From contig CP104013.1 of assembly GCA_025839675.1 (NCBI GenBank), positions 330,001 through 362,000 on the forward strand: a DNA stretch of 32,000 bases, read 5' to 3'. Under the pieces are notes generated by a model. That model was not told the DNA's origin and did not search any database. It was given only the letters and a program-made list of their open reading frames with translations. This document shows positions 1 through 19,499 of the stretch, piece after piece (position 1 is the stretch's first letter; each line of letters begins with the position of its first letter). The position numbers were made by a program, and so were the translations under genes. This DNA comes from Candidatus Lokiarchaeum ossiferum (GTDB taxonomy: Archaea; Asgardarchaeota; Lokiarchaeia; Sigyniarchaeales; Promethearchaeaceae).

Positions 1-1
1 T

Positions 2-1354: not shown

Positions 1355-1381
1355 TGATATAATAGGGATAAAGATTGAAAA

Positions 1382-2950
1382 TTATAAATGATCTTTAGGT
1401 TGTTTCCAATCCGCAGAAGAACTGTATTTTTTTACTTCTCGTTGAGCTCTCTTGAGCGGTGCTAATGTACCAGGACCACCAACGCAACCGTAGGGACAAG
1501 CCATTCCTTCCACAAGTAGTGGTGAAGGATCGAGTTTCCCCTTTTCCAATTTTTTTAATAGAATCACACATTCTTTCAAAGTATCCGCAGCAATAAGTGG
1601 AATGTCGTGATCTTGTCCAATAATTGCTTTGGTTTGTTCTATAACTGCGTTTGCTACTCCACCTGCGACGGGAAAACCACGACCTAAAGCCGATGCATCA
1701 TGCAGTTCTTCCGTACCCACCATTTTTGTTACATCAATATTATTTGCTTGAAATAGAGCTGAGAGTTCTTCAAAAGTAATAACAAAATCCACAAATTCAG
1801 CGACTTTAGGAATAAAACATTCTTCCTTTTTGGCGATGCAAGGACCTATGAAGACTACTATTCCATTAGGATCTTCTTTCTTGATTTGTTTAGCAATTTC
1901 TACCATGGGTGCAAAAGATTCGGATATATTGAGAGCAAAAGTAGAAGGAAATTTTTTTTCTGCCATCATTGCCCAAGCGGTGCAGCAACTTGTCCCAACA
2001 AATGATCTACAATCATCTTTTTCATCAGAATTTTCGATACATTTCTCTCGTTTCTCGATTAATTCAATCAATTCTTCTGCTTCATTTACTACCACGACAT
2101 CTGCACCATAGGCCACTTCGCGCACATCTTTGAACCCTAGAGTTTTTAATGCTTCAATTAACATTGGGGGTTTAACCAATGGTCCGAATTGGCTTACAAA
2201 TGCTGGAGCAATCTCAGCATAGACAGAATTAGGTCCTTTTAAAGCAGACAAAACTTGTACTATCTCAGATTTTTCAGCAATAGCACCAAATGGACAGGAA
2301 ACAATGCACATTCCGCATGAGACACATTGATCGGAATCGATTTCTGCAAATCCATCATCATCTGAATGTATTGCATTGACTCCACAAGCAGCAGCACAAG
2401 GTCTTTCCCGATAAACAATTGCATTATAAGGACACACTTGAGCACATTTCCCACACCGAATACATTTTTCCTGATCAATAAATGATTTGCCCGATGGTAA
2501 AATAGATACACAATTTTTTGGACAGACTGTTGTGCATGGATGAGCGATGCATCCTCGACACAAATCTGTAACTAAATAGGAATGTTCTGGGCACCTTTCA
2601 CATCCAACTTTAATTACATTTACAATCGGTCGTTTGGCAACCTTTCGATCTGTTATCATATTGATGACATCATCATCATTGATTGGACCGTGAGCTCCAA
2701 ATTCTTTAAGATCCATACCAAAGGCAAGCCGAACTCTTTCACGTACAATGGCTCTTTCCTTGAACACCGATTCACGATAAGTGGGGGTGTCTGTATTTAT
2801 GATTTTATATGGAATATGTTCAATATAACTGGGGAGTTTGTCTTGCACTATCATTCGAGCCACAGCGGATAAAACTCGACGACGAATATCGGTGACCGGA
2901 GTATAAAGCCCCCGCATCTTCTCAAAAATATTCAAGGATGGTAATGGCAT
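1382..2950 (-). CDS. [FeFe]-hydrogenase-like protein (N-terminal ferredoxin-type Fe-S modules plus H-cluster domain)
   Basis: 522-aa ORF with an ATG start. Cys clusters CERCPEHSYLVTDLCRGCIAHPCTTVCP, CIRCGKCAQVCP and CVSCGMCIVSCP are followed by H-cluster-like motifs TSCCTAW, GPCIAKKEE and EGMACPYGCVGGPG (canonical forms TSCCPxW, MPCxxKxxE, ExMxCxxGCxxGG). Confidence 0.75.
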   Translation of the reverse strand: MPLPSLNIFEKMRGLYTPVTDIRRRVLSAVARMIVQDKLPSYIEHIPYKIINTDTPTYRESVFKERAIVRERVRLAFGMDLKEFGAHGPINDDDVINMITDRKVAKRPIVNVIKVGCERCPEHSYLVTDLCRGCIAHPCTTVCPKNCVSILPSGKSFIDQEKCIRCGKCAQVCPYNAIVYRERPCAAACGVNAIHSDDDGFAEIDSDQCVSCGMCIVSCPFGAIAEKSEIVQVLSALKGPNSVYAEIAPAFVSQFGPLVKPPMLIEALKTLGFKDVREVAYGADVVVVNEAEELIELIEKREKCIENSDEKDDCRSFVGTSCCTAWAMMAEKKFPSTFALNISESFAPMVEIAKQIKKEDPNGIVVFIGPCIAKKEECFIPKVAEFVDFVITFEELSALFQANNIDVTKMVGTEELHDASALGRGFPVAGGVANAVIEQTKAIIGQDHDIPLIAADTLKECVILLKKLEKGKLDPSPLLVEGMACPYGCVGGPGTLAPLKRAQREVKKYSSSADWKQPKDHL

Positions 2951-2993
2951 AAGCTATCGCATTTTTTTATTGTATTTAGTAGAAAAGATATAA

Positions 2994-3290
2994 TTAAGCT
3001 TTTAGATCTCTGATAATTTCCATTAACTTATCGGCTGTCATGGAACTATAAATTTCATTATTAATGACTACGGTTGGGGATAACACACCTTCATTGCCAC
3101 AAGAATTTTGGCATGGAACACTTTCAATTTTGCAGTGTTTCTGAATAAAAGAATCATTTTCTGCCAAGTCGAGCAGCTCTTGTCCACCATGGGTCAAACA
3201 GTTCATTCCGCAACATATTTTTAAATTAATCTTTTCCATTAGTTTCTTCCCCATTTTATTTAGAACATATTTGAATTTGAATTTATTCAC
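2994..3290 (-). CDS. small thioredoxin-like [2Fe-2S] ferredoxin (NuoE/HydC-type Cys spacing), start uncertain
   Basis: CCGMNC (Cx4C) and CQNSC (Cx3C) spacing on a roughly 80-98 aa alpha/beta protein, immediately upstream of and co-oriented with the hydrogenase-like gene (43-nt gap). Internal ATGs at 3254 or 3239 (MEKINLKICCG...) would leave a more realistic divergent promoter region. Confidence 0.55.
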   Translation of the reverse strand: MNKFKFKYVLNKMGKKLMEKINLKICCGMNCLTHGGQELLDLAENDSFIQKHCKIESVPCQNSCGNEGVLSPTVVINNEIYSSMTADKLMEIIRDLKA

Positions 3291-3350
3291 CCTAGGATAT
3301 TAATGCGTCACTATTATTACCCCTAAGTGATATTATTGAAAAGAGAAGTA

Positions 3351-4847
3351 ATGAAAGAATATGATTTAATAGTTGTTGGTAGTGGAGTTGGATTAACTGT
3401 TTTAAGCTCAGGATTACAACGTGGGTTGTCTTGTGCACTAATTGAAGATGCTAAAATGGGTGGTACGTGTTTAACGCGAGGATGCATCCCGAGCAAAGTT
3501 TTAGTTTATCCTGCAGATGTTATTCGCGAAGCAGATCATGCAAAAAAGATCGGTCTTAGTATAAATTTCAAGCATTTTGATTGGCAATTAATTAGTGAAC
3601 GAATGTGGAGCCAAATTGATGAAAGTGAAGGGATAGAACAAAGTTTGAGTCAAGCTCCGAATTTAAAAATATTTCGGGGTGTTGGTGAATTTACAGGAAA
3701 ATATTCGCTGAAAGTAAAATTGAATGAGACTGGAGAATACTCCGAAGAATTCAAAGGAAAACAGATTATTTTAGCATCAGGAGGAAGATCTTTTATACCT
3801 CCGATTGAAGGATTAAAGCAAGTTGATTTTGTTACAAGTGAATCCTTTTTTGGAGATAAATTTCCAGAACGACCCTGGAAAAGTCTAACGATAATTGGCG
3901 GTGGGGTGATTGCTGCCGAATTTGCTCATATTTTTTCAGCATTTGGAACGAATGTAACAATTGTTGAAATGTTACCTCGATTAGTTCCTACGGAAGAACC
4001 AGAAGTGTCGAAAATTTTGGAACAAAGTTTTTCAAAACATCTCTCCGTTTTCACAAATCATAAAGCAATTCGTGTAAAACAAAATGGGAATTTGAAAGAA
4101 TTATTCATTCAAAATCTCGAAACGAACGAAATTAAAACGATTCAAAGCGAAACGCTGCTAATTGCAACAGGAAGGCGTTCTAATGCGGATGTATTGAGGG
4201 TGGAAAATGCCAATATTGAAACGACGAAAACAAATTGGATTAAGACAGACAAATTCTTACAAACGAATATTCGAAACATCTGGGCAATAGGAGATGCAAC
4301 GGGTAAATATCAATTTCGACATAAAGCAAATTACGATGCGGAAATTGTTGTTAGAAATATTTTTGGGAAAAAGGAAAAGACGATGGTGGATTACTCTGCG
4401 GTACCTTGGGCAATTTTTACTTATCCACAGATTGCTCATGTTGGGTTAACAGAAAAGGAAGCAATTGATCAAGGTAATCAAATCTATACGGCAGTTAAAA
4501 CTTATTCTTCTGTAGCAAAAGGATTTGCAATGGGATTAGAGGATACTGATGGACTATTTAAATTAATTGTAGATTCAGACTATCATATACTCGGAGCTCA
4601 TGCTATTGGACCTCATGCAGCAACATTGATTCAACCAATTGTGTATTTGATGAATGCGGGTTTTTCATGCGGAAATCAAGAATTTAAGATAGCAAACAAT
4701 CTTCGAAAATTCACTAATGCTTGTCCGGAAGCGGGTTCATTTATGCCAATATATAAATCTATGGTTATCCATCCGTCTCTAAATGAAGTAGTTGGGTGGG
4801 CTTTAGGAAATTTACAACCAGTCAATATTGAGCATTCTCATCACTAA
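3351..4847 (+). CDS. class I FAD/NAD(P) pyridine nucleotide-disulfide oxidoreductase (dihydrolipoyl dehydrogenase / glutathione- or mycothione-reductase-like)
   Basis: N-terminal YDLIVVGSGVG Rossmann motif, redox disulfide GGTCLTRGCIPSK, second dinucleotide fold LTIIGGGVIAAEFA, GDATG motif and a C-terminal HPSLNEV His-Glu dyad. I prefer the ATG at 3351 (MKEYDLIVVGSG) over the GTG at 3327. Confidence 0.85.
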   Translation: MKEYDLIVVGSGVGLTVLSSGLQRGLSCALIEDAKMGGTCLTRGCIPSKVLVYPADVIREADHAKKIGLSINFKHFDWQLISERMWSQIDESEGIEQSLSQAPNLKIFRGVGEFTGKYSLKVKLNETGEYSEEFKGKQIILASGGRSFIPPIEGLKQVDFVTSESFFGDKFPERPWKSLTIIGGGVIAAEFAHIFSAFGTNVTIVEMLPRLVPTEEPEVSKILEQSFSKHLSVFTNHKAIRVKQNGNLKELFIQNLETNEIKTIQSETLLIATGRRSNADVLRVENANIETTKTNWIKTDKFLQTNIRNIWAIGDATGKYQFRHKANYDAEIVVRNIFGKKEKTMVDYSAVPWAIFTYPQIAHVGLTEKEAIDQGNQIYTAVKTYSSVAKGFAMGLEDTDGLFKLIVDSDYHILGAHAIGPHAATLIQPIVYLMNAGFSCGNQEFKIANNLRKFTNACPEAGSFMPIYKSMVIHPSLNEVVGWALGNLQPVNIEHSHH

Positions 4848-5024
4848 TTTTTTCTTATTATTTTTCTTTTAGGTTCTTAACACCTTCTCTCGTATGATCA
4901 ATGATTAAATTTTTGCTTTTAGTGAATTGCTTCAAAAAACAACATATGTAAATTTTGAAAACAAACTTTATATATAACATACACACTAAAATATGTACTG
5001 TACACATTTTATAGTCATATATGG

Positions 5025-6389
5025 ATGTTGATTAATATGTCAAATTTGGATAAAAACCCACCAACTTTAAAAACCTATCACCAATATCTAATCATTTGGA
5101 TTGGCCAATTGATTTCGCTTATTGGATCAAATATTGTTCAATTTGTTATGATTTGGTGGATAACCATAGAGACGCAAAGCGCTGTATATCTGTCTCTCGC
5201 CACATTCTTTGGATACATCCCCAGTGTAATTTTAAGTCCTTTTACTGGAGTATTAGCCGATAAGGTAGATCGACAAAAATTAATAATTCTTGCGGATTTC
5301 TTGCAAGCTTTTGTGACTTTATTATTAATATGTTCGTTCTATTTCAATATGATGCAGATTTGGATTTATTTCCTTATTATTTCACTTCGTTCCATATTTC
5401 AAACTCTTCAAGGTCCGGCAAAATATGCAATAGTCTCTCAAATGGTTCCAAAAGAAAAACTGGCTCGATTGAATGGATTAGATTATTTCTTCTCAAATAT
5501 TATGAGTTTAATTGGGGCACCAATTGCAGCTTTATTACTCAATTTCTTTGATATTTTCCAGTTGCTATTCGTTGATATTTTTACATTCCTCATTGCCATA
5601 ATTCCATTCTTTTTCATACGAATTCCTAAATTAGCACATATTGGAGATAAAGTCCAATTACCCTCAATGGGTGAGTACAAGGAAGGAATAAAAGAAGGGT
5701 TTCAATTTCTACGAAGAAATGTTGGTTTTTTCAGTTTAATTTTGACGGCATCATTCGTCAACTTCTTCATCATGCCTTTTACTTCTTTGCTTGCCTATTA
5801 TATCAATGTAGATAATGGAGGAACTGAACAGCATTTAGCTTTAGTGATGATGGCTCAGCAAGCAGGATTAATATTTGGGGGGTTAATTACTACCATAAAA
5901 CCAAAGCGGAAGAATCCTATGAAATTCATGCAGTTTATTTTAACTATTCAATTTATTGGATTTGCAATTATTGGACTCGCACCTCTAGGATCCTATTGGA
6001 TAATGAGTCTTGGTATGTTTGTTTCAGGAATGACTTTTCCCTTTACTAATACGATTATCTCAACAATATTCCAAAAAAATGTACCAAATGAAGTCCAAGG
6101 ACGCATTAGCACAGTTTTAGGTGCATTATCAATGTTAATAAGTCCCATTGGGATGATAATTTCAGGACCTTTAGCCAATTTAATGAGTACTAAGCTATTA
6201 TTCATTGTATCGAGCCTTATACCAATATTAGCCATTCAGTTTATCTGGAAATTTACACCTATTATGGACGCAGAAAAAATAGTTCAGGATAACAAATCAT
6301 TAGAAGTGCTCAAAAATCCTGAAATTATGACTGAAGTCGTACCAGTTAATATAAAAGAACCAAGGGAAGAACAGGAATCACTTTCTTGA
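5025..6389 (+). CDS. MFS transporter (about 12 TM)
   Basis: 454 aa, hydrophobic throughout, with the MFS loop motif GVLADKVDRQK between TM2 and TM3. Alternative start at 5037 (MSNLDK). TATA-like CTTTATATATAAC lies about 50 nt upstream. Confidence 0.8.
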   Translation: MLINMSNLDKNPPTLKTYHQYLIIWIGQLISLIGSNIVQFVMIWWITIETQSAVYLSLATFFGYIPSVILSPFTGVLADKVDRQKLIILADFLQAFVTLLLICSFYFNMMQIWIYFLIISLRSIFQTLQGPAKYAIVSQMVPKEKLARLNGLDYFFSNIMSLIGAPIAALLLNFFDIFQLLFVDIFTFLIAIIPFFFIRIPKLAHIGDKVQLPSMGEYKEGIKEGFQFLRRNVGFFSLILTASFVNFFIMPFTSLLAYYINVDNGGTEQHLALVMMAQQAGLIFGGLITTIKPKRKNPMKFMQFILTIQFIGFAIIGLAPLGSYWIMSLGMFVSGMTFPFTNTIISTIFQKNVPNEVQGRISTVLGALSMLISPIGMIISGPLANLMSTKLLFIVSSLIPILAIQFIWKFTPIMDAEKIVQDNKSLEVLKNPEIMTEVVPVNIKEPREEQESLS

Positions 6390-6510
6390 TACCATCTAAT
6401 ATTTAAATTAGTAGAATTTTTTCTTTAATTCCATTTTGGAAAGAATTGAGCTATAATAGAATAATTCCGAGTCCTATAATTATATTAGTATAAAATATGT
6501 ATGAAAGTAT

Positions 6511-6518
6511 AAAAAAAA
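6511..6518 (-). terminator. oligo-T tract (T8 on the minus strand) downstream of the paralog pair
   Basis: A8 on the plus strand, about 29 nt after the stop of the 6547-7836 gene. Oligo-T tracts are the established archaeal termination signal. Confidence 0.3.
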
Positions 6519-6546
6519 GAAGCAATAAAAGTAGTTAGAATCATAA

Positions 6547-7836
6547 TTAAACCAGAAGAATTTTATGAACCGCTTCAACCCACTCCGATTCATCAATATT
6601 GCCTAAATTGCCTGTTTTTATAAATCCTTCAATCTCTGTTTGATATCGTTCTTCTAAGTAATTATTTAAGTAATTTAGCCGTTCCCTAAACGAGTCGTCA
6701 ACAGAATCACTTGTTATTGCAAATATTTTTGCATATTTTCCAACTGCAGCATTAATTTTAAAATTTTGATAATCTACTTCATTTAACATCCCCTTTCCTC
6801 CACTAATTTCTTCTATAAAAGAATCCATCGCAGATAGGAAACCTGAAATCATCAATTCGTTTAATGGCATACCCAATTTTGTTGCGTGAGAAAACATAGA
6901 TAACCCTGAATCATTGGATATTATAAGCAAATTTTTAAAAATATCTTGATATTTCAGATTCTTTTTTGAAGCTTCCATCAAATTGTGAGAGTTTTCTGGA
7001 ATATAGAATAACTGAACATCTTTGGGTCGATAGCTTTGCTTTTCAGAAAATGCATATTTAGAGATTTTTACTACTTGGGATGCTGCACGAATCGGAGTAG
7101 AAGGTAATTTACTAATGTAAGCATTTCTAAGTTCTTCAACTTCACGCTTTGATTTTCCTCCTTTCAATATCCCAAAAATTTGCTCTTGAACAGGATCAAC
7201 CACATATAACCAACAATTCAATTTTTTCATATCTACTAACAGTCTTTCATATCCTATTTTTAAAACTCCGACTGGTGTAGTCACAAAAATTTTCCAATCT
7301 GAGATTTCACCAGCTCTCTCAATATTTAAAAATGTTTCACGATATTTTTCTTGAATATCGTTTCCAGTTAGAATAAATACAGATTCAGTTTTTAAACGCG
7401 GATCTTTTTTAGTTAAATATAGATCAATATTGTATTCTTCATCTTTTTTGTTTTGAAATACGTTAATTTTTAAGTCGGCACAATAATCGGCAAAAATGTT
7501 GATTAAATCAGATTTTGCAATAAAATCAAACATCGCTAAATTACATTGCATCACTTGGGATGTGCAAATGTCTTTCCCGATAAGTTCAACTTTATTTAAT
7601 TTTTCTTTTTTTAACCGTTTTTCAATTATTTCACTCGAGAGATAATAATCCAAAATAATTGTAAGGATTGTATCCTTCTCAAAATGATCTTCAGGATTTA
7701 TTAAAGCTTGGATCAAAGCAAACTTGTGTAAATCTTCAACGGAACTGTGCTCAAATAAACATTCCAAGCATATTAATCCAAATTTTACTGGATTACTTTT
7801 TGATAAAAGTGCAAATTTTTCACGATTTGTTGTCAT
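6547..7836 (-). CDS. hypothetical protein, paralog B of a tandem pair (possible degenerate Mrr/PD-(D/E)xK-like core plus C-terminal longin/roadblock-like domain)
   Basis: 429-aa ORF that shares long conserved blocks with the upstream gene: INIFADYCADLKINVF, SDWKIFVTTPVGVLKIGYERLLVDMKKLNCWLYVVDPVQEQIFG, LPSTPIRAASQVVKISKYAF, GFLSAMDSFIEEISGG. Confidence 0.75.
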   Translation of the reverse strand: MTTNREKFALLSKSNPVKFGLICLECLFEHSSVEDLHKFALIQALINPEDHFEKDTILTIILDYYLSSEIIEKRLKKEKLNKVELIGKDICTSQVMQCNLAMFDFIAKSDLINIFADYCADLKINVFQNKKDEEYNIDLYLTKKDPRLKTESVFILTGNDIQEKYRETFLNIERAGEISDWKIFVTTPVGVLKIGYERLLVDMKKLNCWLYVVDPVQEQIFGILKGGKSKREVEELRNAYISKLPSTPIRAASQVVKISKYAFSEKQSYRPKDVQLFYIPENSHNLMEASKKNLKYQDIFKNLLIISNDSGLSMFSHATKLGMPLNELMISGFLSAMDSFIEEISGGKGMLNEVDYQNFKINAAVGKYAKIFAITSDSVDDSFRERLNYLNNYLEERYQTEIEGFIKTGNLGNIDESEWVEAVHKILLV

Positions 7837-7860
7837 TATTTAGTTCACTTCGCAAACTTT

Positions 7861-9162
7861 TCAAATTGATAAAGTTGATTTAATTAAAGGGACTATGAGA
7901 TGATCTATTGATGCAATTGATTGACCAGTTTCATAGAATAAGTCCAATTCTTCATTAAGTTTTTGCTCAAATAATTTTGTAAACACGGCTAAGCGTTCTT
8001 TAAAAATTTGACCACCACTTTTGGATAATATCGAAATAACTTTAATTTTTTTTCCTAGAATGGCATTTATTGTAAAACCTTGATAATTTATTTCTTCTAA
8101 TTTAGTAGAACCCGAAACAGAAGATACAAAAGAATCAAATGCAGAAAGAAAACCACCCACCATTTGTTCATCAACATCTTTCTGTTTGTATGAATAAATT
8201 GTCAGACCTGATTTTTTATCCAGAATAATTAGCGAACGAAATATATCAATAAACATTGGTTTTATTAATTTGGAGTGTTCCATCATTTTGGATACCGCTT
8301 GGTCTGAAAAGAAGAATTTACGGTAAATTTTATGCTTATATGCATATTTCTCTTCAAAAGCATATTTTGAAATTTTAACCACTTGTGAGGCGGTCCTTAA
8401 TGGTGTGGAGGGGAGATTAGTGATATATTCATCACGAAGATTTGAGTCTTCATTTTTTGATGTTTTTCCTTTTTCCACTCCAAATACACGTTTTTGAACA
8501 GGATCAACTATATACAACCATGTGTGTAATCGCTTCATATCAGCAAGTAATTTATCCATTCCAATGATTAAAGCCCCAATTGGAGTAGTTACAAACAGCT
8601 TCCATTCTGAAATTAAGGTAGATCTGGCAAGAGAAGACAAGATTTTTTCATAATCTTCCACCTTTAATTCAAATCCGGTCCGAACTATTACTGATTCGGT
8701 GGTTACGAATACTCCTTTTGTTTTTTTAATAAGATATGCGTCAAGATTGTAAATTTCATCGTTTAAAACACGATACACATTGATACCAAGATCTGCACAA
8801 TAATCGGCAAAAACATTGATGAGTTCTGTTTTGCTCACAAAATCGAATAGAAATTCATTTGATGTAACTGGGAGCAACTTTAGGAGATCGTCTCCAAGAT
8901 AATGGATAGAATCGAGATAAGAAGATTGAATCGCTTTTTCAGATTGATATTGGTTGTAATAAAAATGAAGAATTTTGTAGATAATTTTCTGTTTTTCTTT
9001 TATCTCATCGGTAGCAAGAATTATTCCTTTCTTCTGGCATAATTGTAAAAGATCCTCGATCCGGGATCTAAATAGTATTTCATCTACGGAAATATAATGA
9101 TATCTAAATGAATTCTTAGCGCTCATCTTATTTACAATATCTAGGAGCTGTGCTTCTTCCAT
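7861..9162 (-). CDS. hypothetical protein, paralog A of a tandem pair (same architecture as 6547-7836)
   Basis: 433-aa ORF, 24 nt upstream of paralog B on the same strand. Conserved blocks: INVFADYCADLGINVY, SEWKLFVTTPIGALIIGMDKLLADMKRLHTWLYIVDPVQKRVFG, LPSTPLRTASQVVKISKYAF, GFLSAFDSFVSSVSGS. A TATA-like TTTTTATAAG (minus strand, about 9181-9192) lies 20-30 nt upstream of the ATG. Confidence 0.75.
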   Translation of the reverse strand: MEEAQLLDIVNKMSAKNSFRYHYISVDEILFRSRIEDLLQLCQKKGIILATDEIKEKQKIIYKILHFYYNQYQSEKAIQSSYLDSIHYLGDDLLKLLPVTSNEFLFDFVSKTELINVFADYCADLGINVYRVLNDEIYNLDAYLIKKTKGVFVTTESVIVRTGFELKVEDYEKILSSLARSTLISEWKLFVTTPIGALIIGMDKLLADMKRLHTWLYIVDPVQKRVFGVEKGKTSKNEDSNLRDEYITNLPSTPLRTASQVVKISKYAFEEKYAYKHKIYRKFFFSDQAVSKMMEHSKLIKPMFIDIFRSLIILDKKSGLTIYSYKQKDVDEQMVGGFLSAFDSFVSSVSGSTKLEEINYQGFTINAILGKKIKVISILSKSGGQIFKERLAVFTKLFEQKLNEELDLFYETGQSIASIDHLIVPLIKSTLSI

Positions 9163-9346
9163 TAATCACTATTAAACGTTTTCTTATAAAAACACTTATT
9201 TAATGATTTATCTTTTTTTAACGAAAAATACTTTTAGATTAAAATGTCTCCATTTTATGACCATTTGAATAATTGAAAAGGAAAGAGTTGTATAATTAAT
9301 ATAATTTATTTAAAAGGAGAAGCAACAAACTAGAAACGTGGTAAAA

Positions 9347-9874
9347 ATGCTCACGGAAGATGAATTTGCTAAAAGTGCTGGTTTAAAAGTGGGAGATATG
9401 GCACCTGATTTTTCTCTAGTCAATACCGATGGTGAAATCAAAGTATTATCCCAACTCTATAAATCGAGTCCTTTAATCGTGAATTTTTTTCGAGGCTCTT
9501 ACTGAGTGCCTTGCAAAGAATTTTTTGTGAAAATAAACCAAAATTTGGATAAATTTAAGAAAATTGGGGCAAAAATGATTTCAATTGCTATTGATAATCC
9601 GAGAAAATTAAGAAAATTCAAAGAAGTCAATAAATTTGACTTAGAGATTTTAGTAGATCGCCGAGGTGCGATATCTAAAAAATATAATGTGTTTACTACT
9701 GGAACTAAAGCGGATCATAAATCTCTAAAATTTCGAATCTCGATTCCCTCAACATTTTTAATAGATGAAACTGGAATAATAAGATGGCGGTTTATAGGTA
9801 CCAGAGAAATAAGACCATCAATTGATTCTTTAATCTCCAATTTTGAGAAAAATTTTCCAAATAGAACTGTCTAA
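9347..9874 (+). CDS. peroxiredoxin-like thioredoxin-fold protein (AhpC/TSA, PRX_like2-type), predicted selenoprotein with in-frame TGA (Sec) at 9503-9505
   Basis: The ATG at 9347 gives MLTEDEFAKSAGLKVGDMAPDFSLVNTDGEIKVLSQLYKSSPLIVNFFRGSY, then TGA, then the same frame continues VPCKEFFVKINQNLDKFKKIGAKMISIAIDN... (the ORF track starts at the GTG right after the TGA). Together they form one 175-aa redoxin domain with a U-V-P-C motif where the family has CxxC. Confidence 0.7.
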
Positions 9875-9948
9875 AAGATCAACCCCTGTTGCAGAAAACA
9901 TAAGGTGTAACAGAGTTAATCGTAGCAATCGATTGATCTTTTTTTTTT
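9873..9948 (+). promoter_or_regulatory. nested stem-loop plus T10 tract in the 3' UTR of the TGA-containing gene (candidate SECIS-like element and/or terminator)
   Basis: The outer 10-bp stem AAAAGATCAA (9873-9882) pairs with TTGATCTTTT (9933-9942). An inner 8-bp hairpin CTGTTGCA (9886-9893) / TGTAACAG (9906-9913) has one G-U pair and the loop GAAAACATAAGG. A T-run follows at 9939-9948. Confidence 0.4.
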
Positions 9949-10067
9949 CATTTTCATCAATTTCATCAATTTTATCAGAAATCTCTAATTCTAAATTAAA
10001 CTTCAAATTAATTCTATTTTTTATTTTAAACATATTTATTAAGGTTAAGATAAAAATTGTATAAAGT

Positions 10068-11186
10068 ATGTTCCGAGAAGAGTTGGAAGAATTAGTTGTT
10101 CAAGAAATGCCAAATTGTATTGGCTGCAATGAATGTATGCGGGTGTGTCCCGTTTCAAAAGACCCCGGAATGACAATTTCAATGCTAAATGATCCAATTC
10201 TGTCAAACACACCCCCTAAAGGGATAGTAAGAGATTTTGCCCTGAATTGTATACAATGTGGAGAATGTGTTCCCGTCTGTCCCCCTGGGGTTCGGAGAGA
10301 TTTAATGGTGCTCTATTTGAGGGCAAACATATCTTCCTATCCATCGAATTACGAAAATTATGTCATGCTAAAGCAACCTAACCCTTCCCAAATAGCAAAG
10401 GGATTATATGCTGTAAAAAGGCGATCCGCAAAAAAAACTCTAGGAAATTTATATGATAAATGTGATCCCAAAGTGTTAAAAAAGGCGAAAGTATTATTCT
10501 ATCCGGGTTGCTACATTTTTAACGAGATCTGCCATAAAACGACTGCAATTTTAGATTACCTTAAAGAAGATTATGAAGTCTTGGGGGGTTATACTTCATG
10601 CTGTGGATGGCCCCAATATTTGCAAGGACGAATGGAAATGGCCGATGAATTTTTGGAAAGTTTATATAAATATATTATGAAAGTAGACCCAGAATATATA
10701 ATTACCACATGTGCGGAATGTTTTGCCGCTTTACGTAAAATCAAAGCAATGAAGAATGTAAAATTTATACCTCTAACTACCACTGAATACTTTTTATCTA
10801 AAGCAGATTTACTGCCCTTAATTAAGTCAAAAAAAGCATATGGATTTCACGATTCATGCCATATATCGCGAAAATACTTTCGAGATGAAGCCCCTCGTAT
10901 ATTATTATCAAAACTTGGTGAAGTTTACGAATTAAAAGATAATCGTGAGCAATCAAGTTGTTGTCATTATTACAATTTTGAAAATGATGCAATAAATTAT
11001 ACTAACCGCAAAGAGCGGATAGAGCAAGTTAAATTAGGCTCTGATACTATGTTAACCGATTGTATTACGTGTTATGAAGTCTTTAAGGAAAAAATGGAAA
11101 AGGAAAACCTTGAAATCGTTGATTTCAATGATTTGATATTTGAATGCATACATAAGGAGGCATCCAAAGAAGATCAAAGCGAATAA
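10068..11186 (+). CDS. HdrD/GlcF-like Fe-S oxidoreductase (2x [4Fe-4S] ferredoxin motifs plus 2x CCG domains)
   Basis: CIGCNECMRVCP and CIQCGECVPVCP, then CCG-type Cys motifs (YPGCY...TSCCGWP...CAEC and HDSCH...SSCCH...CITC). No SD-like sequence. An AT-rich TATA-like box at 10034-10051 suggests a near-leaderless transcript. Confidence 0.8.
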   Translation: MFREELEELVVQEMPNCIGCNECMRVCPVSKDPGMTISMLNDPILSNTPPKGIVRDFALNCIQCGECVPVCPPGVRRDLMVLYLRANISSYPSNYENYVMLKQPNPSQIAKGLYAVKRRSAKKTLGNLYDKCDPKVLKKAKVLFYPGCYIFNEICHKTTAILDYLKEDYEVLGGYTSCCGWPQYLQGRMEMADEFLESLYKYIMKVDPEYIITTCAECFAALRKIKAMKNVKFIPLTTTEYFLSKADLLPLIKSKKAYGFHDSCHISRKYFRDEAPRILLSKLGEVYELKDNREQSSCCHYYNFENDAINYTNRKERIEQVKLGSDTMLTDCITCYEVFKEKMEKENLEIVDFNDLIFECIHKEASKEDQSE

Positions 11187-11202
11187 AAGATTTGTGATTA
11201 AT

Positions 11203-12483
11203 ATGGTAAAAAAATATAAACCTGGAATTGTTGTTATTGGTGGAGGTCAAGCAGGAATACATGCAATTGAGGAGATTCGCAAGTCCGATGGTAAAATCCG
11301 TATTTATTTGATTGATCATGACAAACATTTGTTTTATTTCCGTGCTGCTTTGAAATATTTTGTAAAGAAGCAAATCGAATTACCCAATTTGAATGCACGT
11401 ATGGACAATTTCATTAAAAAAAGCAATGTGACTTTTTTTCAAGATGAAGTGAAAAATATAGATAGAGATCATCAATTTGTTTATACTGAGAATAGTTTAG
11501 AAATTCCCTATACTAAATTGCTAATTGCTACGGGAGGGATCCCTTTCATTCCTCCAAGTTTAAGAAAGGACGTTGACGGAATATTTCCAATGCATTCTTT
11601 GGAAGATACTCTCAATATTTGTGAAAAAGCAGATTCTGGAATATACAAAAAGATTGTAATTTTAGGAGCAGGTGTACTAGGTACAGAACTTGCAGAGTCA
11701 TTGATAGAACGAGGTGTTTCAGTTTCAATTCTTACTCGGGGATATGTTTTAGTTCCAAAAATGTTGGATACAAAGAGCTCCGCAATTGTGGTCAAGAAAT
11801 ACCAAAAATTAGGTATGGATATCCAATTCAATGAATCAATATCTGAAATCCATACTGATGAATCTGGGCAATTAACAGCAATTACAAACTCTAAAAATGA
11901 AAAAATAGAATGTGATTGTTTGTGTGTATGCACAGGTATTCGTCGCAATATTCAACTTGCCCAAGAATGCAATTTAGAAACAGATAATGGAATTAAAGTA
12001 AATCAATTCCTTCAGACGAGTGATCCAAACATCTTCGCAGCGGGGGATGTAGTGGAATATTATATTCCTGAATTAAAAACTCACAAGTTGATTGATTTAT
12101 GGGGACCTGCTGGAAAGATGGGGAAAATTGCAGGAAACAATATGACTAGGGATCACATTACTTATAACTTGGGCACTTTCCATGCTTATACAATATTTGC
12201 AGGACTGAATTGCCATGTAATTGGAGAATTTAATCCCAAGAACCCATCTGAGTATGAGATTTTAGAAACGGAATATTTAGTTCGGGATCAAGTTTGCCTG
12301 TTTAGACTTATTTTGCAAGATAATCTCATTAAAGGAGTGTTTTCACTCGGTGAAGCTCGACATCCAATGATCCTGGAAAAAATTATCACTTTAAAAAAAC
12401 AAATTCCTTCCAATATCACGAAATCGATGCTCTTAGAAAGAGGGTTTGATTTTGAACGTATCTTATACTATCAAGAACATTAA
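11203..12483 (+). CDS. FAD/NAD(P)-dependent oxidoreductase (pyridine nucleotide-disulfide oxidoreductase fold; rubredoxin/ferredoxin-reductase-like, no N-terminal redox Cys seen)
   Basis: IVVIGGGQAG and IVILGAGVLGTELAESL dinucleotide folds and an AAGDV motif. The ATG at 11203 lies 16 nt after the HdrD-like stop; the ORF-track start at 11140 overlaps the upstream gene and adds a non-homologous leader. Confidence 0.8.
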   Translation: MVKKYKPGIVVIGGGQAGIHAIEEIRKSDGKIRIYLIDHDKHLFYFRAALKYFVKKQIELPNLNARMDNFIKKSNVTFFQDEVKNIDRDHQFVYTENSLEIPYTKLLIATGGIPFIPPSLRKDVDGIFPMHSLEDTLNICEKADSGIYKKIVILGAGVLGTELAESLIERGVSVSILTRGYVLVPKMLDTKSSAIVVKKYQKLGMDIQFNESISEIHTDESGQLTAITNSKNEKIECDCLCVCTGIRRNIQLAQECNLETDNGIKVNQFLQTSDPNIFAAGDVVEYYIPELKTHKLIDLWGPAGKMGKIAGNNMTRDHITYNLGTFHAYTIFAGLNCHVIGEFNPKNPSEYEILETEYLVRDQVCLFRLILQDNLIKGVFSLGEARHPMILEKIITLKKQIPSNITKSMLLERGFDFERILYYQEH

Positions 12484-12492
12484 GGGAAAAAA

Positions 12493-13374
12493 ATGGTTTT
12501 CAATTGGTATATTCTGTTGATAATGGTAGGGTATGCCTTTTTTAACGGAATAGGATCCTTAGGCTTTAAATTAGGTCTGAAAAAAATAGATAAACCTTCT
12601 GTTTCACTACAAAATCTTTCAAAAGAAAATCGAAGTGCTTATATTCAGTTATTAAAAACACCAATTTGGTTATTTGGATGGCTTTGTTTAGGGATCGACT
12701 TTCTAATATATCAAATAGCGATAAAAAATTATGATCTCTCTGTAATTAAGCCTTTGGTCAACTTGAATTTAATTTTTGTAATCCTCTTTGGAACTATAAT
12801 TTTAAAGGAGAAAATTGGACTTTTCGAATGGATTGGAATCACATTTATAATTCTTGGAGCAATTATGATAACTCTGTTTAGTACACCCTCAGAAACAAAT
12901 ATTAATTTGCCTAAATTGATAATCTTCATTGGACTCATTTTGATAAGTGTAGTTTTGTTAGTTATTGCAAATCAATTTACCTCAATAGATAATAAGGAAC
13001 TAATTTTAGGATGTTTTTCGGGAATATTGTACGGCACAGGATCAATTTTTAATAAAGCAGCATATTCCACAAATAATTCTTATTTTCTAACCATAGTATT
13101 TATTATATTTTTTGGAATTTCATATGGTTTCGCATTTTTAAGTGGGCAAAGTGCCTATTTAAATGGAAGAATGAGCATTGTGTCAACTTTAGTAAATGTT
13201 TTTAGCATATTAACTCCCTTCATTGGAGGGATTTTGATTTTTGAAGAAACACTCATAATAGATACCCCAATAGGTTGGATGAAATATTTGAAGATAATTG
13301 GGTTAATTTGTATTCTTTTAGGAATAGCTTTTACTTCTATCAAAAACGGAAAAGAGAATAACTCTCCAGATTAA
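12493..13374 (+). CDS. EamA/DMT-superfamily-like membrane transporter
   Basis: 293 aa with about 9-10 hydrophobic helices in a two-halves arrangement. It starts 9 nt after the preceding gene, so it is probably in the same operon. Confidence 0.6.
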   Translation: MVFNWYILLIMVGYAFFNGIGSLGFKLGLKKIDKPSVSLQNLSKENRSAYIQLLKTPIWLFGWLCLGIDFLIYQIAIKNYDLSVIKPLVNLNLIFVILFGTIILKEKIGLFEWIGITFIILGAIMITLFSTPSETNINLPKLIIFIGLILISVVLLVIANQFTSIDNKELILGCFSGILYGTGSIFNKAAYSTNNSYFLTIVFIIFFGISYGFAFLSGQSAYLNGRMSIVSTLVNVFSILTPFIGGILIFEETLIIDTPIGWMKYLKIIGLICILLGIAFTSIKNGKENNSPD

Positions 13375-13402
13375 TAGCATTGAATCGCTGGTTATACAAT
13401 GT

Positions 13403-14419
13403 TCATCTAATATTTTCCACCTTATGTTGAAAATTCTTAATTTTTGCAAGTCTTTGGGTAATATCTTTAAATTTTTCAAAAAGAGGTAAATTGTTAATTT
13501 TACCAGAAATTTCAGTGTCAAAATTAACCCAATTGTACCAAATATGCCCTTCCATTGATTTTATAGGCATATGAGAAAAAATACGATCTAAATATTGCGG
13601 ATCTTCAGTATAACCATATTCTGCGATAATGTATGGCTTTTTATGCTTTTGAGTTTGTTTTAAGACCTTTAGAAAGTTTTTTTGGTATTGTTTAAAATCA
13701 ATATTGGATTTTTTTGCCATAAACTTCAGATATTTGACCATTAGTGGATATGAGCGCAAAATAATTTTAGGAAAAATGGAATATATCTTCGCTGCATCTT
13801 CAAGAAACATCTGAAAGACCGCACCTACATCTTCTTCATCATTACGAGAGATAGAATATTTGTACATGAAATAATCGGCCCCAATAATATCAGCATTATA
13901 ATATTTTGGGAAATTTAGATTCGCATTCGTTACAATTGTAGGTCGATTGGTTTTTTTTGAAATATTTTTTTGCACGGCATCAAGATATCGATGAGGGGAT
14001 AATAATCCATGATAAACTTCATTATTTATGCAGTAAATAATGATATTAGGATACTTTTCAGCAGAATATTTTTGCAAAAATTGATCCAAAATGGATAAAG
14101 AAGGTTTCAAATTCCAGTTTACTGGTAGGTTCATTACAATGTTAATTCCTTCTTCACCTAAGATCTTCAAACCTCCATCTGGAATACTCGAAATATGCTG
14201 GCCATTTAGAATAGTGGGCCATATTCTGACCGTATTAATATTCATTTCTTTGAGTAATGGGATGATATTCTGGATTAATTCAATAGAAGCCATTTTTGGA
14301 GTATAAATTTGACGAGGGTCTTTTTCTAAACGAAACTTATCCAAAAATAAATTCATTCCTTGAAGAAAGAATCTTTCTCCATTGAGATATAACTTTTGAT
14401 TGATAATTTCAAATTCCAT
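13403..14419 (-). CDS. TIM-barrel glycoside hydrolase-like protein (clan GH-A features), no signal peptide
   Basis: The N-terminal LYLNGERFFLQGMN resembles the start of GH2/GH5 catalytic domains. CINNEV (an NE acid/base-like motif) and IIAEYGY (a nucleophile-like E) are spaced about 130 aa apart. Confidence 0.5.
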   Translation of the reverse strand: MEFEIINQKLYLNGERFFLQGMNLFLDKFRLEKDPRQIYTPKMASIELIQNIIPLLKEMNINTVRIWPTILNGQHISSIPDGGLKILGEEGINIVMNLPVNWNLKPSLSILDQFLQKYSAEKYPNIIIYCINNEVYHGLLSPHRYLDAVQKNISKKTNRPTIVTNANLNFPKYYNADIIGADYFMYKYSISRNDEEDVGAVFQMFLEDAAKIYSIFPKIILRSYPLMVKYLKFMAKKSNIDFKQYQKNFLKVLKQTQKHKKPYIIAEYGYTEDPQYLDRIFSHMPIKSMEGHIWYNWVNFDTEISGKINNLPLFEKFKDITQRLAKIKNFQHKVENIR

Positions 14420-14638
14420 TTATTTCCCAAGTTCCTCGATTCAAATTTTATTTTTTACATAAATTGATTTTTAAATTGATTATGCTCTATATTTAATTGA
14501 ACACACTTATTAAGGTTAAGAATTTCAATATTAAAAGGTAGATTTTATTCATATTAGGATTAGCATGATATCGATAGAAAGATAAAATGTATTTTCTTAT
14601 GAGAATTTGACTATTGAAGAATATAAGGATGGGAAATA

Positions 14639-15412
14639 ATGCTTGATACGAGACTTAATAAAAGCAAACTGTCAAAAAAAATTGAAGCAATAGCGGAAAA
14701 GTATCTGCTTACCCATATTTCAGCTAATAAAATGACCATTATAGGATTAATACTAGGTATTCTGAGTTCGATTTTGTTTATTTTTCCTTATGTATTGAAT
14801 TTGAACTCCGGATTTCAGCAAGCTTTAGTCTTATTTGAAACGGATGTCAAGAATAATTCTTTAATACAAGCATTTAGAAACAGCCTATATCAAGCACATT
14901 TATTGAATTGGACATGGCAGCTAGGAGACACCTTTTTCTTATTAAGCTTGGTAATGATGCTTCTTTCATTTACTTCTGATGTTTTTGATGGTCCACTTGC
15001 TCGTTTAAAAAAGCCCACAATATTTGGAGGAATATTAGATATATTCTGTGATCGGACAGTAGAACTCGCTTTGATAATTGCAATAGTTTTCTCAGATCGA
15101 GAAAAACTCGGATTTCCTGGTAGTATTGCTATTAGTTCTATTGTTCTCTGTATCAGTATTTTTCTGCTCATTGGTGGCGCAGTTAATCGTTTGCAAGAAA
15201 AAAACTTAAATCAACAAGCAAAAGTAATTTTTTATTCCACGGGAATCATGGAACGCACCGAAACATTCATTTTCATATTACTAATGATGGTGTTTTCGAT
15301 CTTTCGCTTATTTTTATTGTACTTGTTCGCATTTTTAGTCTTTTTAACTGCATTTCAACGATTTTATAATGCTTATAAAATGTTCTATAAAAAATCCAGC
15401 AAAACTGAATAA
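14639..15412 (+). CDS. CDP-alcohol phosphatidyltransferase family protein (polar lipid head-group synthesis)
   Basis: Signature D-x2-D-G-x2-A-R...G-x3-D-x3-D is present as DVFDGPLARLKKPTIFGGILDIFCDR. Multi-TM protein. Confidence 0.8.
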   Translation: MLDTRLNKSKLSKKIEAIAEKYLLTHISANKMTIIGLILGILSSILFIFPYVLNLNSGFQQALVLFETDVKNNSLIQAFRNSLYQAHLLNWTWQLGDTFFLLSLVMMLLSFTSDVFDGPLARLKKPTIFGGILDIFCDRTVELALIIAIVFSDREKLGFPGSIAISSIVLCISIFLLIGGAVNRLQEKNLNQQAKVIFYSTGIMERTETFIFILLMMVFSIFRLFLLYLFAFLVFLTAFQRFYNAYKMFYKKSSKTE

Positions 15413-15721
15413 AATAGGATGTTTCCAAGATAAAAAAAAAATTTTTTGAATATGTGCTTATATTTCTTTTTTTTTATACAAATTCCTTAATATTTTCTAA
15501 AATGTGCTGATGAATTCTTGTTTAATCAAGTAATATTTAAGGATGTCGGTAATTTCATTGATTATAAACATATTATGAAAATTTAATTTGAAATATAATT
15601 TTTTTTCAACTAACATTTTTAAGTATAAACAGTGGACCTTTTATCAAGTAAAATCTAATCATAAATTAGAAATTTGATATACAACGTTTTTTTTTAATAC
15701 ATCAAGTTTGAGGTAAATAAA

Positions 15722-16093
15722 ATGGACTATTTAAAATGTAAGCACTGTGATGAACTCTTTGAAAAAGTTTTTGAAGGTTCAGTTTGTGATGAACACGGTT
15801 GTGCCTGCAACGATATGGATGTTGTAGAGCCAAAGACCGCTGACTGGAAAAATGAAAAACATGTCCCCGTTGTGGAAAAGACAGAAAAAGGAATTAAAGT
15901 AACTGTTGGATCTACTCTACATCCGATGGTTGATGATCATTGGATAACAATGATTGAAGTTGTAAAGGATAATATGCAATATCGGGCTTATCTAAAACCA
16001 GGCGATGCCCCCGTTGCTGAATTTCCAATTGATGATGTAAACGTTCTTGCGCGCGAATATTGTAATAAACATGGCCTTTGGGCTAATAAATAA
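15722..16093 (+). CDS. dfx: superoxide reductase, desulfoferrodoxin-type (2Fe-SOR-like)
   Basis: The N-terminal Cys-rich desulforedoxin-like module is CKHC...CDEHGCAC. Centre II ligand motifs are EKHVPV, HPM and CNKHGLW. SD-like GAGGT lies 8 nt upstream. Confidence 0.85.
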   Translation: MDYLKCKHCDELFEKVFEGSVCDEHGCACNDMDVVEPKTADWKNEKHVPVVEKTEKGIKVTVGSTLHPMVDDHWITMIEVVKDNMQYRAYLKPGDAPVAEFPIDDVNVLAREYCNKHGLWANK

Positions 16094-16133
16094 ACTTTTT
16101 TCATTAACTATTTAATAAAATGTGATAAAAAAT

Positions 16134-16637
16134 ATGACTAAATCTGAAGAAGACCTGATGGCGGCCTTTGCTGGAGAAAGCCAAGCTAACCGAAAATATC
16201 TCGCATTTGCAAAAAAAGCAGATAAGGAAGGATTTAAACAAGTTGCAAAAGTGTTCCGAGCTGCTGCTGCTGCAGAAACAGTCCATGCACATAATCATCT
16301 CCGAGCTGCTGGAGGAATAAAAGATACTGTTTCAAATGTAAAAGCTGCTATAGAAGGCGAGCACTATGAATTTTCAAATATGTATCCGGAAATGTTAGAA
16401 CATGCAAAGCAAGATGGAAATAAAAAAGCAGAGCAATCCTTCCATTGGGCAAACGAAGTCGAAAAAATCCATCATAAATTATACTCTGGTGCATTAGAAG
16501 CGATAGAAAAGAAGGAAGATCTCCCAGAACAAGAGATGTATATCTGTCCTGTCTGTGGTTTCACTGTTGAAGGTGAAGTCCCAGATCTTTGTCCCGTCTG
16601 TGGTGCTAAAGGATCCACTTTCCAGTTGATTGAATAA
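16134..16637 (+). CDS. rbr: rubrerythrin
   Basis: The ferritin-like di-iron domain (EEDLMAAFAGESQANRKY, EGEHYE, EVEKIHH) is followed by a C-terminal rubredoxin-like CPVCG...CPVCG. The ATG at 16134 is preferred over the GTG at 16122. Confidence 0.9.
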   Translation: MTKSEEDLMAAFAGESQANRKYLAFAKKADKEGFKQVAKVFRAAAAAETVHAHNHLRAAGGIKDTVSNVKAAIEGEHYEFSNMYPEMLEHAKQDGNKKAEQSFHWANEVEKIHHKLYSGALEAIEKKEDLPEQEMYICPVCGFTVEGEVPDLCPVCGAKGSTFQLIE

Positions 16638-16648
16638 ACCGAGAGAGA

Positions 16649-17605
16649 TCATTTAATTTTACATTTTTTTTCCTTTAATTCTTGAAGCCATTTGGAGACT
16701 TCTTCTGATTCAATAGATATTTTATCTTTTCCAAACCAAAAATATCGCAATTTTTCTAAATGAATGAGAGAATCAGGTATTTTTTTTATGGGATTATCTG
16801 CTAATATCAAATTTTGTATTTCAGTCAAATTACCGACCCATTCGGGTATTTTTGTAAGTTCATTTCCGAATAAGTTAAAATCTTGTAAATTTTTTAGAGA
16901 CTTTAAAGAATCGGGCAATTTTTTTATTTTATTTCTAAATAATGATAACTCTATTAGATTTTCAAGCTTCCCTATTTCATTAGGCAAATCTACCAAACAG
17001 TTATCACCGAGAGTCAATTCTTTTAATAAGCTCAGATCACCAATCCAAGTAGGAATTTTTTTAATTTTATTTTTATATAAAACCAATCGAGTTAATTGTG
17101 TCATTGTTTGAAGCCAATCTGGAAGTTGCTCTAAATTCAATCCAAATAAATAAATATGTTCTAATGTTTTAATAGAAGACAACCATTCTGGAATTTCTTG
17201 AAGAGGATTTCCCCCAATATTTAAAGCCTTAAGCTTCTTAACTTTACGAATCCAATTTGGTATTATTTTGAAATAATTATTTTGAATATGGAGTTCAGAA
17301 AATGCTTCTAAGTGCTGCAAATTTGAGGGAATGCTGGATATTTCATTATTGGCGATCCATAAATAATTAAGCGATCGTAATTTTGTAATGGAATCCGGAA
17401 GAATCTTCAATTTTTGATTTTGCAAAGCAAGTGCCAATATACGCCCTTCACGCGCAATAAATCCAAACATATTTCGATTAAAGCGAGAGATTGCAGGAAT
17501 TGGTTTCGAAATAAGCTGCTCAATTTCAAGTAAACATTCGCACTCTTCTTTATGTAGTTCAATATTTTGATAAACTTCGAGATTTTGGGAGTTTTTATCT
17601 ATCAT
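16649..17605 (-). CDS. leucine-rich repeat (LRR) protein, about 10-11 repeats of 23 aa
   Basis: Regular LxxLxLxxNxLxxIPxxI periodicity, for example LKELTLGDNCLVDLPNEIGKLEN and LIELSLFRNKIKKLPDSLKSLKN. No GTPase, kinase or other fused domain. Confidence 0.85.
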   Translation of the reverse strand: MIDKNSQNLEVYQNIELHKEECECLLEIEQLISKPIPAISRFNRNMFGFIAREGRILALALQNQKLKILPDSITKLRSLNYLWIANNEISSIPSNLQHLEAFSELHIQNNYFKIIPNWIRKVKKLKALNIGGNPLQEIPEWLSSIKTLEHIYLFGLNLEQLPDWLQTMTQLTRLVLYKNKIKKIPTWIGDLSLLKELTLGDNCLVDLPNEIGKLENLIELSLFRNKIKKLPDSLKSLKNLQDFNLFGNELTKIPEWVGNLTEIQNLILADNPIKKIPDSLIHLEKLRYFWFGKDKISIESEEVSKWLQELKEKKCKIK

Positions 17606-17657
17606 TTAAATTCACCAATCAATAGAGAAAAAAAATCAAAAAATGATACTTAAGTGC

Positions 17658-18320: not shown

Positions 18321-18631
18321 AATGTATTACTCCTATAAAAAATTGAATCAGTAAAAATATCTTAGTCAAAAAGCTTTAAAATTGTTTCTCAGTCAAATAA
18401 ATTAACCTAAACATTTGCATTTTTAGTATCCTCCCTAAAAAATTCTACAATTTTTTTTTTAAAGATATAGAACTTATGATTTTCCCTAACAGATCCATCG
18501 ACTCAAAATATGATTCTTGAATTGTAATTTAACCTGTATATTAGATAGTTGTTCTGGGGCCTGTCTATAATTTAGCTCAGAAGAGCCTTTGAAAAATTTG
18601 GACATTAAAAATAAATAATAAAAAAATAAAA

Positions 18632-19498: not shown

Positions 19499-19499
19499 A

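Follow-up and report, generated by a model that had tools for sequence, protein, structure and literature searches.

The stretch analysed here, 32,000 nucleotides of Candidatus Lokiarchaeum ossiferum DNA (contig CP104013.1, positions 330,001 to 362,000 of the forward strand; hereafter the window, in whose numbering positions are given unless another locus is named), contains a gene for a peroxiredoxin-like protein, prxL, that is crossed by an in-frame TGA codon and divided in the annotation between the hypothetical proteins NEF87_000301 and NEF87_000302. The coding features are as follows; omega is the ratio of non-synonymous (dN) to synonymous (dS) divergence, and L001, L066 and L067 are the related sequences compared below.

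9347..9502, + strand: N-terminal 52 codons of prxL (NEF87_000301), omega 0.14 against L001
9503..9505, + strand: in-frame TGA, predicted selenocysteine (Sec) codon U53, in the column of Sec or the first Cys of homologs; kept in L001, L066 and L067
9506..9874, + strand: C-terminal 122 codons and TAA stop (NEF87_000302), omega 0.24 against L001
9512-9514, + strand: Cys56, completing the U-V-P-C redox box and aligned with the peroxidatic Cys of Aeropyrum pernix BCP (2cx3)

The ATG at 9347 opens 52 sense codons ending in ...NFFRGSY immediately before the TGA at 9503-9505, after which the same frame continues with GTG CCT TGC AAA (V-P-C-K) and stays open until the TAA at 9872-9874. A mechanical list of open reading frames (ORFs) cuts the gene into 9338..9505 and 9506..9874, which share one frame, and the public annotation is likewise divided: the N-terminal 52 residues match NEF87_000301 exactly, and the C-terminal fragment is NEF87_000302 of the 6.03-Mb Ca. 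L. ossiferum contig (99% by BLASTP, the sole difference being Met versus Val at the GTG start). When the TGA is bridged, the 175-residue product scores 92.6 bits against Pfam AhpC-TSA (PF00578, curated cut-off 26, E 2.4e-26), placing it among the AhpC/TSA thioredoxin-fold proteins, and it also matches Redoxin (PF08534, E 1.4e-19). Since the PF00578 match, over residues 15-147, spans the TGA, neither half alone is a complete domain. The only Cys of the protein is C56, so none lies outside the redox box. Elsewhere in the window TGA serves as a normal stop: 25 long ORFs end in TAA (19), TGA (5) or TAG (1) and the MFS gene, for example, terminates at the TGA at 6387-6389; any recoding at 9503-9505 would therefore be site-specific. 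On the two strands of the whole window, 16 TGA codons are flanked to either side by 35 or more open codons, and inspection of the flanking translations places only that at 9503-9505 in sense-strand coding sequence. The original prediction, made from the sequence alone, had described this same arrangement (a 52-residue frame from ATG 9347, the TGA and an unshifted continuation; a called GTG start at 9506 that is simply the codon after the TGA; two incomplete halves that together give a 175-residue AhpC/TSA thioredoxin fold; TGA as a normal stop in the window), and each of these points is borne out.

Proteins of this kind are known. Five selenoprotein families were reported for Lokiarchaeota by Mariotti et al. 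2016, among them PrxL in UxxC (PrxL.2) and UxxU (PrxL.1) forms, the Loki proteins having no Cys besides the redox box (PMC4989117). In the survey of Huang et al. 2024, 43.2% of the Asgard archaea that use Sec had Prx-like selenoproteins, and 85.9% of the Lokiarchaeia/Helarchaeales genomes used Sec (PMC11227280), while a 2026 review counts the 'Prx-like thiol:disulfide oxidoreductase, PF00578, UxxC/UxxU' among the high-confidence predicted prokaryotic selenoprotein families (PMC13188914). The supplement to the 2024 survey gives the Asgard Prx-like selenoproteins with Sec written as X (PMC11227280), and in alignment with them the TGA of the window gene falls exactly on the X column, opposite both UxxC examples (Lokiarchaeia_GCA_014730295_U_2, 'FFRGAFXVPCKE') and UxxU examples ('FFRGAWXHYXKE'). 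The window protein shares with the PrxL selenoproteins of Lokiarchaeota and other Asgard archaea the AhpC/TSA fold, a UxxC box with Sec first, the lack of any other Cys, a length of about 170 residues and the context 'FFRGxxU', extending to 'UVPCKE' as in Lokiarchaeia_GCA_014730295_U_2. As in other Asgard PrxL loci, the Sec gene has been split by annotators and a structured element runs 3' from the stop codon to a U-run.

In homologs that have Cys, the column of the TGA is occupied by the first Cys of CxxC, variously CTNC (haloarchaeal), CPYC (P0003), CGPC (Prolixibacteraceae) and CVPC, the last in a Leptospirales protein ('NFFASYCVPCKEE') that shares even 'SYCVPCKE' with the window protein. 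A metagenome scan added 47 homologs of the Cys form in which the context is DFFRGxWC; its pattern, [IVL][DN]FFRG[SAN][WYF]C, demanded a Cys codon, so that only Cys forms could be returned. The bacterial Prx-like thiol:disulfide oxidoreductases, in their Sec and Cys forms, belong to the same Pfam family and use the same Sec/Cys position (PMC13188914), but the Sec forms carry a SelB-bound hairpin just 3' of the UGA, whereas no conserved hairpin is present at that place here. The one candidate considered, CCAAAAUUUGG with a 4-bp CCAA/UUGG stem, was rejected as inspection showed that it is not conserved in L001. The closest structures in the PDB are BCP-type peroxiredoxins (2cx3, E 4e-14). Relative to A. 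pernix BCP, Cys56 corresponds to the peroxidatic Cys and the TGA to the Ser/Thr of the S/T-x-x-C motif (S-P-V-C in BCP). BCP/PrxQ peroxiredoxins have S/T-x-x-C, whereas here Sec at the S/T position gives a thioredoxin-like two-residue redox box, U53-V-P-C56, as in the PrxL family.

The window protein is an outlier within this family: its close kin are its own strain variants and one relative lineage, all other homologs being at most about 47% identical. It is absent from the Prx-like sequence file of the 2024 survey (PMC11227280). The known family of PrxL selenoproteins gains in it a new member, one that is wrongly annotated at present. A scan of genome contigs, which apparently did not reach L. 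ossiferum, gave three hits only, all of them distant bacterial homologs of the Cys or typical-Prx kind; in the L002 translation a seeming in-frame stop proved to be the natural terminator and not a bacterial Sec codon. A profile of the region after the Sec codon found 388 relatives, and among the best 120 of these many are fragments of about 104-122 residues that begin after the Sec codon. All six full-length relatives that were read (of a class of about 170-195 residues) carry W at the Sec column. This W is the product of gene finders using a TGA=Trp code, a systematic mis-translation in public protein collections. The six entries (P0125, P0127, P0129, P0131, P0132 and P0138; FFRGNWWSHCKK) come from short metagenome contigs.

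The TGA is not peculiar to one assembly. It is present in Logan contig L066 (SRR22273278), whose DNA is 100% identical to the window, in L067 (CP163304), another strain of L. ossiferum with about 98% identity, and in L001 (ERR13917544), a distinct relative from another sample with 85% nucleotide and 82% amino acid identity. Against L001, the Nei-Gojobori method gives dS 0.82, dN 0.115 and omega 0.14 for the 52 codons 5' of the TGA and dS 0.39, dN 0.095 and omega 0.24 for the 122 codons 3' of it; the TGA has been kept in both at a dS of about 0.5. The deficit of non-synonymous relative to synonymous change in the upstream 52 codons is significant (Fisher p = 2e-6). Between the window and L067 the synonymous and non-synonymous differences per site are pS 0.063 and pN 0.005, a pN/pS of about 0.08, and in the three lineages compared there are no frameshifts or additional stops. 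Both halves of prxL, and the TGA between them, are under purifying selection in three lineages.

These data bear on two explanations in which the TGA needs no recoding. Were it a sequencing or assembly error for TGC or TGT, nothing would recommend that view beyond the prior that single-base errors exist, and the identical TGA in four independent assemblies (the window, SRR22273278, CP163304 and ERR13917544) excludes an assembly error, leaving error of any kind with a negligible chance. Were the gene instead a pseudogene or truly split, with termination at the TGA and a C-terminal ORF that is dead or made from GTG 9506, the current annotation as two hypothetical proteins and the lack of a canonical selenocysteine insertion sequence (SECIS) would be accounted for. 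However, a pseudogene, or a gene with its true end at 9505, would not have both halves held under selection as they are here (omega 0.14 upstream, 0.24 downstream; p = 2e-6); neither half is a complete fold, and all three lineages are free of frameshifts and extra stops. Nor is GTG 9506 a conserved restart, since other PrxL genes have S, H, I, V, P or N after Sec, and the downstream starts that gene callers choose for them differ. A split or dead gene is therefore very improbable.

We thus favour, with a probability of roughly 0.8 for the explanation as a whole, a reading of NEF87_000301 and NEF87_000302 as one gene, prxL, encoding a predicted 175-residue Prx-like Sec-containing thiol:disulfide oxidoreductase. 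The UGA would be decoded as Sec by a pathway of the archaeal/eukaryotic type, as the prevalence of the trait in Lokiarchaeia/Helarchaeales (85.9%) suggests. From the family's Prx-like redox box and thioredoxin fold, Sec53 would be expected to attack a peroxide or disulfide substrate and Cys56 to resolve it via a selenenylsulfide, which a partner would then re-reduce. The original prediction of Sec at the UxxC redox position of a peroxiredoxin-like gene is accordingly supported, though for a family already known and at a locus lacking a canonical SECIS. It had asked for Cys or annotated Sec opposite the TGA, and the aligned published Asgard PrxL proteins have Sec there and the Cys homologs CxxC; it had taken truncated orthologs as the mark of a pseudogene, and those found retain the TGA at the low omega values given above; and its statement that Sec decoding has been reported for Lokiarchaeota agrees with the description of PrxL selenoproteins in 2016 and their survey in 2024 (PMC4989117, PMC11227280). 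Two results from outside the gene weigh on the other side: a literature search found no paper connecting L. ossiferum with Sec, and a tRNA scan of the whole window was negative, so that no tRNA-Sec lies nearby. A search with HdrA, aimed at an L. ossiferum HdrA/FrhD selenoprotein locus, returned none of that organism's proteins among the best 120 matches.

It is also conceivable that the UGA is read as a standard amino acid (such as Cys or Trp, through near-cognate or suppressor decoding), or inefficiently without Sec, the kink-turn core of the SECIS having been lost. The AUGA/GA quartet required by all described Asgard SECIS models is indeed missing. Yet a Cys codon is one mutation away from TGA, and TGA has been kept in three lineages at a dS of about 0.5; the position is the canonical Sec site of the PrxL family; and 85.9% of the surveyed Lokiarchaeia/Helarchaeales genomes use Sec (PMC11227280). 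We consider such a reading improbable.

If the UGA is decoded as Sec, a signal should direct it, and the published models describe what this would look like. The lokiSECIS lies directly after the stop codon and consists of AUGA, a 9-bp stem, an 11-nt apical loop (A's at its start, AG at its end) and then GA/AA; the loosest published model asks for GA_[G/A]A flanking a stem of 7-15 bp. As positive controls we took 14 PrxL loci (L052-L065) from four sub-lineages, comprising 8 distinct sequences. All 14, with their 8 distinct elements, carry a canonical lokiSECIS (AUGA, 9-bp stem, 11-12-nt loop, GA/AA). A pattern scan located the element in 12 of them (7 distinct sequences), from 3 nt before to 19 nt after the stop; it missed L062 and L063, where manual in-register layout shows two stem mismatches and a start 17 nt before the stop. 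The element of L055, for example, reads AUGA-AUCACCUGU-GAAAAAACGAG-ACAGGUGAG-GA, followed by a mini-hairpin and a U-run, with a short enclosing lower stem. In L064 and L061 the stop codon UGA doubles as the UGA of AUGA, and in L062 the SECIS (1847-1900 of that locus) overlaps the end of the coding sequence, its TAA stop falling within the apical loop.

Downstream of the window gene, the corresponding region holds the following.

9873..9948, + strand: whole structured 3' element, candidate non-canonical SECIS, starting in the stop codon and ending in a T10 run (9939-9948)
9882..9885, + strand: 5' junction 'ACCC', at the position of AUGA in canonical elements (in-register layout against the 8 canonical PrxL elements)
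9886..9913, + strand: upper hairpin HP1, CUGUUGCA, loop GAAAACAUAAGG, UGUAACAG, the sole 8-bp hairpin with a lokiSECIS-type loop
9915..9937, + strand: second hairpin HP2, GUUAAUCG, loop UAGCAAU, CGAUUGAU, in the RNAalifold consensus and single-sequence folds
9873-9881 pairing with 9934-9942, + strand: lower stem which, with a 4-5 bp mini-hairpin, is the alternative to HP2 in the folds

The element begins within the stop codon, in the 3' untranslated region (UTR) close to the stop as expected of a SECIS, and is the only conserved non-coding sequence around prxL: 69 of its 76 positions are identical in L001, while synonymous sites differ at 37% and neither the 5' UTR nor the spacer beyond the T-run can be aligned. 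Its fold is more stable than chance (-17.2 kcal/mol, z = -3.1; z = -3.7 for the L001 version and -2.1 for that of L067), and every cell of HP2 is paired in the three sequences. HP1 can be read as 8 Watson-Crick pairs with the 12-nt loop GAAAACAUAAGG, or as 9 'pairs' with a G.G closure and the 10-nt loop AAAACAUAAG. In 64 kb of sequence, counting both strands, it is the only hairpin with an 8-bp stem and a lokiSECIS-type loop, against 0.18 per window in shuffled sequence, by a loop filter that was written after the sequence had been seen. Across the three sequences HP1 has one compensatory change, G-C to A-U in L001, and one pair that is variously G.U, G-C or G.G; two stem pairs in all switch between G.U and G-C.

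Compared with the lokiSECIS, or Asgard eSECIS-like type I element, the window element shares its place directly 3' of the stop codon and, when HP1 is read as 8 Watson-Crick pairs, the upper stem and a loop that starts GAAAA and ends AAG(G) (compare GAAAAAACGAG in L055 and L064), the mini-hairpin after the upper hairpin, the enclosing lower stem and the U-run. It differs in its 5' internal loop, which is 4 nt (ACCC) where the canonical one is about 11 nt and ends in AUGA, in having AGU and not GA/AA on the 3' side, in a loop of 12 and not 11 nt, and in going undetected by models built from canonical elements. Should 9873-9948 be the signal, recognition would be via the upper hairpin HP1 and its A-rich loop.

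Several results count against a role of this element in Sec insertion. The 5' flank reads AACC-C where canonical elements read ...AAGR-AUGA, and the 3' flank A-G-U-U (AGU at 9914-9916) where they read GA/AA. There is no ATGA in 9875-10067, nor does the 3' UTR contain an AUGA...GA/AA pattern; 9873-9948 lacks the kink-turn quartet, and a search for an alternative placement of it found none. Rfam gave no family at gathering score in the whole window. Inspection of 9875-9950 showed no eaSECIS (GAA_A bulge and three G-C pairs), a GAA following the stem but with neither an opposing A nor an upper G-C stem. A covariance model of the 8 canonical PrxL lokiSECIS did not match the element at E <= 10, and a hairpin-only model gave 13.9 bits (E 1.2) for L001 and did not list the window. 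The covariation is not significant, 168 of 500 shuffles of the three distinct sequences being as good, and one HP1 pair is G.G in L067. Finally, 5 of the 76 positions of the element differ between the two strains, which is close to the rate at synonymous sites (pS 0.063). Elsewhere, a pattern scan of the whole window for NUGA-stem-loop-stem-GA/AA gave about 90 loose matches, none in the 3' UTR; the one within the coding sequence, at 9360-9396, has a G.U-rich 7-bp stem and no favoured fold in three sequences (z 0.26, -1.17 and 0.46), and we attribute it to chance.

These results leave room for a protein that contains Sec but whose 3' hairpins and U-run are a termination or mRNA-stability element, the true Sec signal lying elsewhere or being of an undescribed type. 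Such an account would explain why 9873-9948 ends in a T10 run, as do canonical PrxL 3' regions, why it fails every SECIS definition tested and why its change between strains is near neutral. On the other hand, oligo-U alone suffices for archaeal transcription termination, so that hairpins would not be required for it, and terminator-like hairpins are not enriched in 1-20000 (14 found against 10.2 expected), lying by their coordinates mostly inside ORFs and not at gene ends. Moreover, there is no other conserved non-coding element around prxL in which a signal might lie, the 5' UTR and the spacer after the T-run being unalignable up to the next promoter, and the sole nearby AUGA...GA pattern, at 9360-9396 in the coding sequence, has no favoured structure. 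A termination or stability element, while a serious alternative, seems to us doubtful. That the conserved structured element 9873-9948 is itself the recoding signal, as a non-canonical SECIS, we put forward tentatively and at somewhat less than even odds. It is unlikely, though far from negligible, that the L. ossiferum lineage has come to direct Sec insertion in PrxL by a derived 3' element of this kind, which has lost the quartet and kept the upper hairpin and A-rich loop.

As a selenoprotein this is an ordinary new entry in a family that has already been catalogued for Asgard archaea, and its practical value is a correction of the annotation, in which NEF87_000301 and NEF87_000302 become one Sec gene. 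The 3' region is of wider consequence. The GA_[G/A]A quartet is obligatory in every published Asgard SECIS model; to our knowledge, this requirement has had no experimental test. Very few Asgard archaea are cultured, L. ossiferum among them, and because selection maintains the UGA of its prxL in the absence of the quartet, this gene offers a concrete test case for recognition of the Asgard Sec codon. It cautions, too, that real selenoprotein genes may escape searches for SECIS elements by pattern. If a derived, quartet-less signal does operate here, then Asgard Sec decoding would not be strictly dependent on the eukaryote-like SECIS core, on which the argument for the 'Loki SECIS as ancestor of the eukaryotic SECIS' is based. 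We know of no SBP2 homolog taking part in Asgard Sec decoding.

The genes around prxL form a redox island. Immediately downstream, and syntenic in L001, are an HdrD-like Fer4+CCG protein and a pyridine-nucleotide disulfide oxidoreductase; a second Pyr_redox_2/dim enzyme lies upstream, and desulfoferrodoxin and rubrerythrin are found 6 kb downstream. These neighbours fit an oxidative-stress role of PrxL. Other PrxL genes differ in their surroundings, having either an Arf-like GTPase and a Sec23-like gene or a peptidase M28 and an FMN dehydrogenase. In L055-L061, L064 and L065 (at about locus positions 700-3300) an Rce1-like protease and an Arf/Ras-family small GTPase precede the Sec prxL, which is followed in L055-L061 by a gene with a Sec23/24 trunk domain and in the Thorarchaeota-labelled contig by an acetyltransferase instead, so that in this sub-lineage (L055-L061/L064/L065) the selenoprotein adjoins 'eukaryotic signature' genes.

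About 50 nt just 5' of the HdrD-like gene (ATG 10068), at 10016-10067 and at 6512-6563 in L001, are identical in both (TCTATTTTTTATTTTAAACATATTTATTAAGGTTAAGATAAAAATTGTATAA), while no other part of that spacer can be aligned and synonymous sites differ at 37%; this segment is probably a promoter (TATA/BRE) with a leader or regulator site. On the other side of prxL, L001 (4027-5676, compared with 9163-9346 here) has two extra minus-strand genes between the gene for a 433-residue protein and prxL, encoding a radical SAM protein with DUF3641 and a DUF2064/CofC-like protein; apart from these two, the genes around prxL keep the same order. The ORF at 11140..12483, called from a TTG, overlaps the preceding gene by 47 nt, and comparison with L001 (426 residues) indicates that its real start is at 11203. 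A short plus-strand frame at 24215-24292, MGNSELYEVIIIGGGIASKGIRIAIA*, which ends after 26 codons in the spacer that separates two genes of the minus strand, resembles the GGGxxG FAD/NAD Rossmann start of a pyridine-nucleotide oxidoreductase and may be a gene remnant. Pfam gives no match at E <= 1e-5 for three minus-strand ORFs of 429, 433 and 338 residues (in 6547-9162 and 13403-14419), of which the first two stand in tandem, are similar in length and conserved in L001, and may be paralogs.

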